NCBI RefSeq assembly: GCF_053078305.1
Contig: NZ_CP166879.1
Strand: one strand, 5' to 3'
DNA length: 64,000 nucleotides
Shown here: one piece after another, positions 62,701-64,000 of the stretch
Position numbering within the stretch: the first letter of the stretch is position 1
How the letters are laid out: every line of letters begins with the position of its first letter
Made by a program: the position numbers

Positions 62701-64000
62701 AAATAAATAATGAGGAATCATACATGGGTAACCGCTTGCTGCGAAGAGCTGTTTCTGTTGCTATCAGTGGAACGTTGTTGGGTCTTGGTGTGGGTGTGTC
62801 AGCTGCAGAAGATATGGCTGGGTTGGATGTATATAGCGTCGTTGTTGAAGCCGATGGTTGGACAAAAGAAAAATCACCTGTGTACGGTAGTATATATAAG
62901 GTCTATTACAATGAATCTTCTAACTGGGGAACGGTTCGCTATATCAGAGACGGGAAAAATGAAACTTTATTTAACTTTGACAATGAGGGGGATATTTATG
63001 TTGTGAATAAAGAACACTCAATAAGATATAAGGTGCATGAGCCTGTGTTGAAGGATTTTGCCCGAATGGCAGAAAAGCTTCGGACTGGCGATAAAGTAGG
63101 TCACAGACTGGATGAGGAAGAAGTTCGTCGCATTACGAATAAAGTTAATAATCTATCAAATACTATTATTAATCCTGAAGTATTAAAACAATCGGATTTC
63201 ATCGCATCAGGACCACGTCCGGAAGGTGACAGTTTGGTTCAGGCTAGTGCGGCGGGCGAACTCGCTCTGGCTGTTGGAGAAGGTGCAGCGGCGGAGGAAA
63301 AGAATTCAACAGCTGTTGGTTCATGGGCTAGTGCTCATGGGAGACAGAGTACTGCATTAGGAAGTGGGGGGCAGGCTTATGCTGATGGTTCAACCGCGTT
63401 GGGAAGTTATTCTCATGTGGATGGTTCATCCGTTTATGGCGTGGCATTAGGGGACAGCTCTGTTGTGGGTGAAAATGCCCCCGAAGGCACTGCACTGGGA
63501 AGCAGAGCGGAAGTTTCTCATAGAAATAGTGTTGCTTTAGGGGCGAGAGCGCACACTACCCGTGATAATGAAGTTTATATCGGCTACGTAGAAGAAGCGG
63601 GCAAGGCTTATAAAACTCGTGTGCTTGGTGGCCTGAGTGACGGTACTCGTCCCTCAGATGCAGCAACCGTTCGTCAGGTTGACCGTGTAAAAGACAGTGT
63701 TGAGCAACTGGCTCAGGATACGAATACCCGCCTTGTAGTCGAAGCGAAAAAGTCTCGTGAATATACAGACTCCAGAACCACCGTTGGTGTGAATGCGGAC
63801 GGAACCCTGACCAGCGCTGATGGCGCTACAAAAACGATTGCTGTTAATGACGGTCTCGTTGCTCTGTCCGGCAGAACAGACCGTATTGATGCTGCAGTTG
63901 GTAGCGTTGACCGCCGGGTTACTAAAAATACACAGGCTATTCAGTCCAATACTCGCCAGTTGCAGGAACATAATGCACGCCTGAACAGCCAGCAGCGTCA

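Follow-up and report, generated by a model that had tools for sequence, protein, structure and literature searches.

A probable Eib-family trimeric autotransporter, an EibG-like mosaic, at the right end of a prophage between rcsD and rcsB of Escherichia coli

Results

A 933W-like prophage without stx

We analyzed a 64,000-nucleotide stretch (the window) of contig NZ_CP166879.1 from NCBI RefSeq assembly GCF_053078305.1. The host is E. coli, as the genes yfaS-yfaQ-yfaP-rcsC-rcsB are present at 99% identity. Next to rcsB lies a lambdoid, 933W-like short-tailed prophage of about 60 kb that has no stx. It carries an integrase gene (9482–10771, minus strand), a Q antiterminator (22296–22745), lysis genes, terminase, portal, and tail fibre genes, a Lom/Ail-type gene, and a Hok/Gef-family gene. 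No tRNA genes were found in the window. For sequence beyond the window's end, we used the public contig JPQG01000003.1 of assembly GCA_000736735.1 (L005), which is 100.000% identical to positions 52724–64000 of the window, over 11,277 nt.

Comparing the empty site with attL and attR showed that integration took place precisely within the 16 nt that separate the rcsD stop codon from the rcsB start codon. The 11-bp attL core, TTGTTCATGTA (9430–9440), overlaps the first 8 nt of rcsB, including its start codon; the matching sites are at 16989–16999 of L005 (attR) and at 491–501 of the contig with the empty site (L018). The coding sequence of rcsB is kept, but phage DNA has taken the place of what natively precedes it, the rcsD side included: the integrase gene lies 45 bp 5' of rcsB in the same orientation, and the phage supplies the sequence AGGTG ahead of the rcsB ATG. 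This rcsD/rcsB junction is found in 13 of 5426 complete E. coli genomes, mostly STEC from humans. A literature search for phage integration at the rcsD/rcsB site found no paper.

Between the Q antiterminator and the lysis genes is a BcgI-like type IIG restriction-modification pair (23276–27360, plus strand), with a 966-amino-acid RE-MTase (PADLOC REase_MTase_IIG, E = 1.6e-233) followed by a 369-amino-acid specificity subunit. The pair occupies the slot that stx has in Stx phages; in a related prophage, from JNEC-KY171, the equivalent slot holds a different HsdM/S pair. An outer-membrane protein gene of the Ail/Lom family is at 49613–50347 (plus strand). Its product matches an NCBIfam model for "resistance to complement killing" (E = 1.9e-28, which is below the curated cut-off), and it is a second possible cargo gene of the serum-resistance type.

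Farther to the right is a giant gene (53943–62366, plus strand, from the ORF listing) that encodes a protein of 2794–2807 amino acids with LPD5, LPD1, MuF_C, and LPD38 domains (identified with Pfam in L005). The protein matches phrog_616, a family to which PHROGs assigns no function, across its full length, and it has a weak match to a DarB-like antirestriction family (phrog_10089, E = 4.8e-26). This gene is conserved in 417 of the 5426 complete E. coli genomes. Directly 3' of it, and part of the phage backbone, is a GC-rich hairpin, GCCCCGTAC-GGAA-GTGCGGGGC (62374–62395, plus strand, read from the sequence). The hairpin may terminate transcription; it has no T-run, and terminator calling did not pick it.

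An open reading frame with an eib leader runs off the window

Beyond about 62403, just past this hairpin, homology to prophages without eib is lost. The next 320 bp or so (62404–62723, plus strand) are homologous to the leaders of eibC, eibD, eibE, and a gene that we call KY171-type (below), and share the conserved block AAATTACAGTGTAAGCAGATGTGAAA with them. This leader or regulatory region moves with the gene. A consensus promoter scan of the leader found a weak sigma-70-like site (62474–62503), and such sites were no more common than in shuffled sequence.

From an ATG at 62724, a frame on the plus strand continues without a stop codon through 425 codons, to the end of the window at 64000. 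By our own estimate, a random sequence would do so with a probability of about (61/64)^425, or 1e-9. A Shine-Dalgarno sequence, GAGGA (62712–62716, read directly from the sequence), precedes the ATG with a spacing of 7 nt. The closest in-frame stop codon on the 5' side is at 62652, with two in-frame GTG codons in between. When the upstream DNA is aligned, this ATG shares its column with the start codons of eibA, eibC, eibD, and eibE. The start codon and strong ribosome binding site of the initial annotation were thus borne out, and so was its remark that the ORF track omits this frame because it exits the window: we checked the ORF listing.

The gene is intact, with a predicted membrane anchor

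The last 81 codons and the anchor lie outside the window's own record and were taken from the identical contig L005. It supplies those 81 codons and a stop codon, which gives a product of 506 amino acids. In a protein search, the representative of a cluster of 506-amino-acid proteins had 99% identity at 100% coverage and carries both PF03895 and PF05658. A member of this cluster (P0123, 506 amino acids) is identical at all 425 residues that the window encodes. The ORF for P0123 is intact and identical on the 24 contigs that we read (30 indexed blocks), which are from different samples. Besides L005, five contigs are 97–99.99% identical and have its gene order. Because a Pfam search with the truncated 425-residue protein could not test for the anchor, we used the full-length P0123, in which residues 448–506 match the YadA anchor (PF03895, E = 1.4e-15). 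On L005, a hairpin with a T-run, which is a terminator, lies 24 nt past the stop codon. Neither a missing anchor nor an early stop, either of which would have told against the initial annotation, was found downstream. We conclude from the sequence that the eib gene is intact and that its product has a predicted anchor.

We also considered that the gene might be a truncated pseudogene, and rejected this.

Among the complete E. coli genomes in our collection, none has the exact allele; the best match has 91% nucleotide identity and leaves about 190 nt at the 5' end unaligned. The phage collection contains only distant relatives, in which nucleotide identity reaches 86% at most, over 30% of the query, and protein identity does not exceed 61.5%.

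Domain architecture

We transferred domain boundaries from the EibG constructs in PMC12511318. They agree with the order of secondary structure in an AlphaFold2 model of the monomer. This model has low confidence (mean pLDDT 51, pTM 0.29), as is expected if the protein is an obligate trimer, and we used it only for the order of secondary structure. All of the following segments are on the plus strand.

The protein begins with a putative Sec signal peptide (residues 1–27, 62724–62804), as the initial annotation had proposed. By a heuristic reading, it has a basic n-region (R4, R7, R8), a hydrophobic core (residues 9–25), and the cleavage motif VSA/A. Unlike the signal peptides of the other Eibs, it does not start with MSKKF, and it is just 33% identical to those of all the Eibs that we compared. 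Next is the Eib N-terminal domain, or NTD (residues 28–158, 62805–63197), which is recognized by homology to EibG and by a match to phrog_33417; here the model's pLDDT is 60–83.

The beta-roll head (LPBR) and neck follow (residues 159–315, 63198–63668). They align with the crystal structure of EibD (2xqh), which is the best match among solved structures (E = 2.8e-76, query residues 161–415). Pfam finds three YadA_head repeats in both the 425-residue and the full-length protein, each of them weak (E around 1e-3), so the homology to EibD is what decides the identification of the head. Other structures that match include the YadA head (1p9h, E = 8.7e-9), BpaC, and another structure of EibD (2xzr, E = 3.9e-5).

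The stalk also aligns with 2xqh. It comprises a right-handed coiled coil, or RHcc (residues 316–349, 63669–63770), which is modelled as a helix over exactly these residues; a saddle, which is a beta-minidomain (residues 350–379, 63771–63860), with modelled strands at 352–356 and 370–374; and a left-handed coiled coil, or LHcc (residues 380–447). The window cuts the LHcc, which is the putative IgG-Fc-binding segment, after residue 425 (63861–64000); a second long helix is modelled at 388–444. The codon for Asp389, within the LHcc, is at 63888–63890. The anchor, at residues 448–506 of P0123, is beyond the window.

In a fold search with the AlphaFold2 model, 2xqh was the sole significant match, with a poor TM-score. 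The alignment with EibA, EibC, EibD, EibE, EibG, and their relatives is collinear from the signal peptide to the anchor, and phrog_10464 spans the full length of the protein (E = 1.9e-165). The head-like repeats and coiled-coil stalk that had first been read from the sequence are borne out by these alignments. The alignment to trimeric EibD and the long predicted helices are consistent with a trimer that has a coiled-coil stalk.

The eib–orf156–eaa cassette is in an unusual slot

On L005, the genes downstream of eib are orf157, an EaaC-type SPATE, attR, rcsD, and ompC, in that order. orf157 (L005 11608–12081) begins about 85 nt past the eib stop codon, beyond the window, and its product is 69% identical to ORF-156C and matches phrog_6585 (E = 1.2e-93). 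It is conserved beside every eib that we examined. Pfam and NCBIfam searches gave it no family; the C-terminal sequence, LAREMGINTKTVNTFLY, resembles a helix-turn-helix, so orf157 might regulate the cassette. The SPATE (1330 amino acids, L005 12452–16444) is 94% identical to EaaC of P-EibC and starts about 440 nt beyond the end of the window; no other gene separates it from attR and rcsD. The right part of this prophage encodes three cargo proteins that are secreted or located in the outer membrane: Eib, the SPATE, and the Lom/Ail-type protein.

The eib–orf156–eaa module also occurs in P-EibA and P-EibC, where it includes orf-60, and in an eibG prophage. In our locus, orf-60 is missing between orf157 and eaa. 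The slot of the module varies. In P-EibC, P-EibD, P-EibE, and PhiR12_3, it follows orf-191, which resembles a tail-fibre-assembly gene; in P-EibD, P-EibE, and PhiR12_3, this is in the middle of the late region. In the lambda-like P-EibA and in the prophage with canonical eibG, which is lambda-like as well and inserted at ompW, the module comes after the tail-fibre genes, at the right end. In the window, the classical slot after orf-191 is empty (44934–45605 is followed directly by 45683), and the cassette comes after the giant LPD5/LPD38 gene instead.

The initial annotation had stated that Eib proteins are known at this position on prophages. As to the right end of the prophage, near attR, this is loosely correct, but the exact slot, after the giant gene rather than after orf-191 or the tail-fibre genes, is a different one. 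The gene is indeed prophage-borne and sits at the extreme right of the late region. It comes with a leader and a terminator of its own and so counts as lysogenic-conversion (moron) cargo, as had been suggested. Eib genes are found in prophage-borne cassettes with a leader, a terminator, and orf156 downstream, with or without eaa, and this locus has that context.

A sister prophage at rcsB in E. coli 2015C-3121 (L015) has a gene for a 338-amino-acid "YadA C-terminal domain" protein in the slot of eib, and a second YadA-like gene (397 amino acids) beside hok. These two genes are at 3494–4687 and 16743–17759 of L015. The position behind the giant gene therefore varies in the trimeric-autotransporter cargo that it holds.

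A mosaic allele closest to EibG

In sequence databases, the protein is named only as "hypothetical protein" or "YadA-like family protein". Among the named Eibs that we compared, its closest relative is EibG (Q0EAF1, 508 amino acids; Lu et al. 2006), the immunoglobulin-binding adhesin responsible for chain-like adherence in LEE-negative STEC. EibG has an identical architecture, and an orf157 and an Eaa SPATE that are 95–100% identical to ours at the nucleotide level are downstream of it as well. The carriers differ: the EibG prophage is lambda-like and inserted at ompW, while ours is 933W-like and inserted at rcsB. An even closer relative is an unnamed 508-amino-acid "YadA-like family protein" of STEC JNEC-KY171, KY176, and FHI_NMBU_10 (WP_471722370; the P0002 cluster), which we call KY171-type. 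Its gene is at the same locus and has the same neighbors as ours: the giant gene, then eib, orf157, the SPATE, and rcsD.

Overall, the protein is 76% identical to EibG and 86% identical to the KY171-type, and the similarity is very uneven. (The segment identities use slightly coarser bins than the domain boundaries above.) The signal peptide is 33% identical to that of either protein. The NTD is 65% identical to EibG and 67% identical to the KY171-type; the best match for the NTD is a 568-amino-acid protein (P0005), at 81%. In the remaining segments, the identities to EibG and the KY171-type are, respectively, 64% and 95% for the LPBR, 98% and 100% for the neck and RHcc, 83% and 96% for the saddle, 100% and 100% for the LHcc, and 94% and 100% for the anchor.

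Sliding comparisons of the nucleotide sequences directly reveal a recombination mosaic. Relative to the KY171-type gene, our gene is about 100% identical from around 63200 onward, and just 50–75% identical across 62650–63200, a stretch that takes in the 3' part of the leader and some 480 nt at the start of the gene. Within this region, 62650–62798 (roughly 75 nt on each side of the point where the leader meets the coding sequence) is only 56% identical to the nearest relative. Relative to eibG, the head (about 63200–63640) is 59–77% identical and the stalk is 86–100% identical. orf157 and the SPATE have 94–100% nucleotide identity among our locus, the KY171-type locus, and the eibG locus.

Residues 381–447 are 100% identical to EibG. 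Both proteins have the motif RIDAAVG, so Asp389 corresponds to Asp391 of EibG, and Asp389 is invariant among 56 aligned members of the family. Position 390 is alanine, as in EibG, instead of the tyrosine of EibC, EibD, and EibE. The alignment also shows that the stalk insert specific to EibC and EibD is absent, as it is from EibE and EibG.

Among the other Eibs, overall identity is 65% for EibE, 57% for EibD (PDB 2XQH and 2XZR), 56% for EibC, and 38% for EibA, all of which are from the ECOR-9 prophages P-EibA, P-EibC, P-EibD, and P-EibE (Sandt & Hill 2000). The comparison with eibA, eibC, eibD, and eibE that the initial annotation had called for shows homologous heads, stalks, saddles, and anchors. 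These four genes are prophage-borne, and each has a homologous leader, a terminator, and an orf156, as ours does; eibA and eibC are then followed by Eaa SPATEs. The differences from our locus are the stalk insert of EibC and EibD, orf-60, and the adjacency of the cassette to orf-191.

YadA of Yersinia is the prototype of the trimeric autotransporter adhesins; it is plasmid-borne and binds collagen. Our protein has a YadA-type anchor, beta-roll head repeats, and a coiled-coil stalk in common with YadA, and its C-terminus matches the NCBIfam model for YadA (NF033478) with 104 bits, as compared to a cut-off of 750. YadA has neither the Eib NTD nor the saddle (preprint 10.64898/2025.12.25.695649). 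With the anchor, the alignment to 2xqh, and the identity to EibG, the original description of the protein as an Eib/YadA-like trimeric autotransporter stands.

Is it EibG? Our protein differs from EibG-alpha at 125 residues and from the KY171-type at 74 residues, while the KY171-type (P0002) differs from EibG-alpha at 60–61 residues. According to PMC4352079, as many as 61 residues distinguish EibG-gamma from EibG-alpha; the KY171-type may therefore be EibG-gamma. In eibG genomes, nucleotide identity to eibG is around 80% over the part of our gene that aligns. With 125 differences and around 80% nucleotide identity, the protein falls outside EibG in the strict sense (the published range of alpha, beta, and gamma), in a comparison with EibG-alpha and the eibG genomes. 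Judging from these alignments, which cover EibA, EibC, EibD, EibE, and EibG, it is a mosaic Eib allele that is closest to EibG and is outside the described EibG subtypes. It is possible that the allele is EibF or EibH. (Searching the literature for EibH gave nothing but unrelated acronyms.)

Discussion

Proposed function

We propose that this ORF (62724–64000) accounts for residues 1–425 of a 506-residue Eib-family trimeric autotransporter (type Vc), which is an EibG-like mosaic and is prophage cargo that is expressed in the lysogen. We give this reading a probability of roughly 90%. The structure and intactness of the gene, the homology, the order of the domains, the conserved Fc-binding segment, and the module and prophage around it are read from the sequence; trimerization, secretion, immunoglobulin binding, an adhesion phenotype, and expression in the lysogen are inferred.

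In type Vc autotransporters, export depends on the Sec system, three anchors form the barrel, and the exported passenger folds as a trimeric "lollipop." For our protein, the signal peptide (residues 1–27) would send the protomer to the periplasm, and the anchor (residues 448–506) would combine with those of two other protomers into a 12-stranded barrel in the outer membrane. The passenger would be exported through this barrel to form a trimeric lollipop, made up of the NTD, the beta-roll head, the neck, the RHcc, the saddle, and the LHcc. The LHcc would bind IgG Fc non-immunely, via a patch that includes Asp389, and by analogy with other Eibs this binding would contribute to serum resistance. 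The region from the head to the saddle would make homotypic contacts between cells, which would lead to chain-like adherence, autoaggregation, and biofilm formation.

The two activities are separable in EibG. The D391A substitution abolishes the binding of IgG Fc and keeps chain formation, and deleting the region from the head to the saddle abolishes chains and keeps Fc binding (preprint 10.64898/2025.12.25.695649). The same preprint reports that deleting eibG lowers lethality in mice. Since the LHcc and Asp389 are identical to those of EibG and Asp389 is invariant among the 56 family members, it is quite likely that the allele binds IgG Fc. Homotypic adhesion is a further expected activity, via a head that may have a different specificity: the head domains are only 64–65% identical to those of EibG (35–36% diverged), so an EibG-like adhesion phenotype is not guaranteed. 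IgA binding is not predictable from the sequence, and the stalk insert of EibC and EibD is absent. Leo et al. are said to have mapped IgA binding to this insert, in 2011.

Some relatives of EibG confer chain-like adherence but do not bind IgG Fc. These are ClaA and ClaB (bioRxiv 10.64898/2025.12.25.695649), which are EibG-related trimeric coiled-coil adhesins of LEE-negative STEC and have a saddle domain. So we also considered that our protein might be a chain-like adhesin of this type, without immunoglobulin binding, especially as its NTD (65%) and LPBR (64%) are strongly diverged from EibG. However, the Cla proteins lack the Eib NTD, do not conserve the predicted IgG-binding residues, have limited similarity to Eibs, and are found in different genomic contexts (same preprint), while our protein has the NTD, an LHcc that is 100% identical to that of EibG, including Asp389, 76% identity overall, and the canonical eib–orf156–eaa context. 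With the NTD present, the Fc-binding segment identical to EibG, and an Eib context, we do not place the protein among the Cla adhesins, and we consider this explanation very unlikely.

Another question is whether an Eib-family gene that is intact would give the lysogen any phenotype. Wild-type eibG is poorly expressed except in static growth, and signals from the gamma subtype are weak (PMC4352079, PMC5450701). In our locus, the divergent stretch around the start codon and the promoter scan of the leader, which did not rise above shuffled sequence, would fit with cargo that is effectively silent. On the other hand, the identical ORF has stayed intact across contigs from different samples, the ribosome binding site is good, and the conserved leader block and the terminator are retained. 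Furthermore, the variation is in the surface-exposed head, while the stalk and the anchor are conserved, which is typical of selection at the surface. Silent cargo therefore seems slightly less probable still than a Cla-type adhesin, and an Eib that is expressed in the lysogen remains our preferred reading.

Finally, we find it very improbable that the protein is part of the virion, such as a phage tail fibre or adhesin, and not located on the bacterial surface. The gene does sit at the end of the late region, and the C-terminal part of its product has weaker matches to PHROGs labelled "tail" or "adhesin" (phrog_17426, phrog_26246). Yet the product carries a predicted Sec signal peptide and a predicted beta-barrel anchor for the outer membrane, and the gene, with a leader and terminator of its own, is missing from otherwise near-identical prophages. 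Moreover, the cassette is found in phages with quite different tail types, and the best PHROG matches have no assigned function.

Implications for the Eib family

Eib proteins bind the Fc part of immunoglobulins and have been linked to serum resistance (PMC5450701), chain-like adherence, and biofilm formation; they are accessory virulence factors of LEE-negative STEC and some commensal E. coli. Earlier work has noted that the diversity of EibG is considerable and has described three patterns of genomic context, using the JNEC-KY genomes, which include our nearest relative (preprint 10.64898/2025.12.25.695649). The allele that we describe fits the usual pattern of the family, with a conserved stalk and anchor and a surface-exposed head that recombines. 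It also illustrates that the eib–orf156–eaa module can occupy a different slot in a different type of phage. The preprint uses a detection threshold of above 90% nucleotide identity; because our gene is around 80% identical to eibG, screens that require over 90% identity should miss it. The practical consequence is modest, as this is a known kind of gene, in the form of an unnamed allele with a reshuffled head, and it opens no new question.

More speculatively, the replaced signal peptide and NTD, combined with a gamma-like beta-roll head, might make this a functionally distinct and as yet unnamed subtype of Eib, a tentative idea that we think is rather less likely than not. If it is true, then the subtype would have its own self-recognition, adhesion specificity, and antigenicity, and screens by eibG PCR or at over 90% identity would under-count Eib-mediated chain-like adherence and Fc binding in STEC. 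A further possibility is that the prophage itself matters: with its insertion at the start codon of rcsB, which puts rcsB behind a phage integrase gene, Rcs signalling could be changed in the lysogens.
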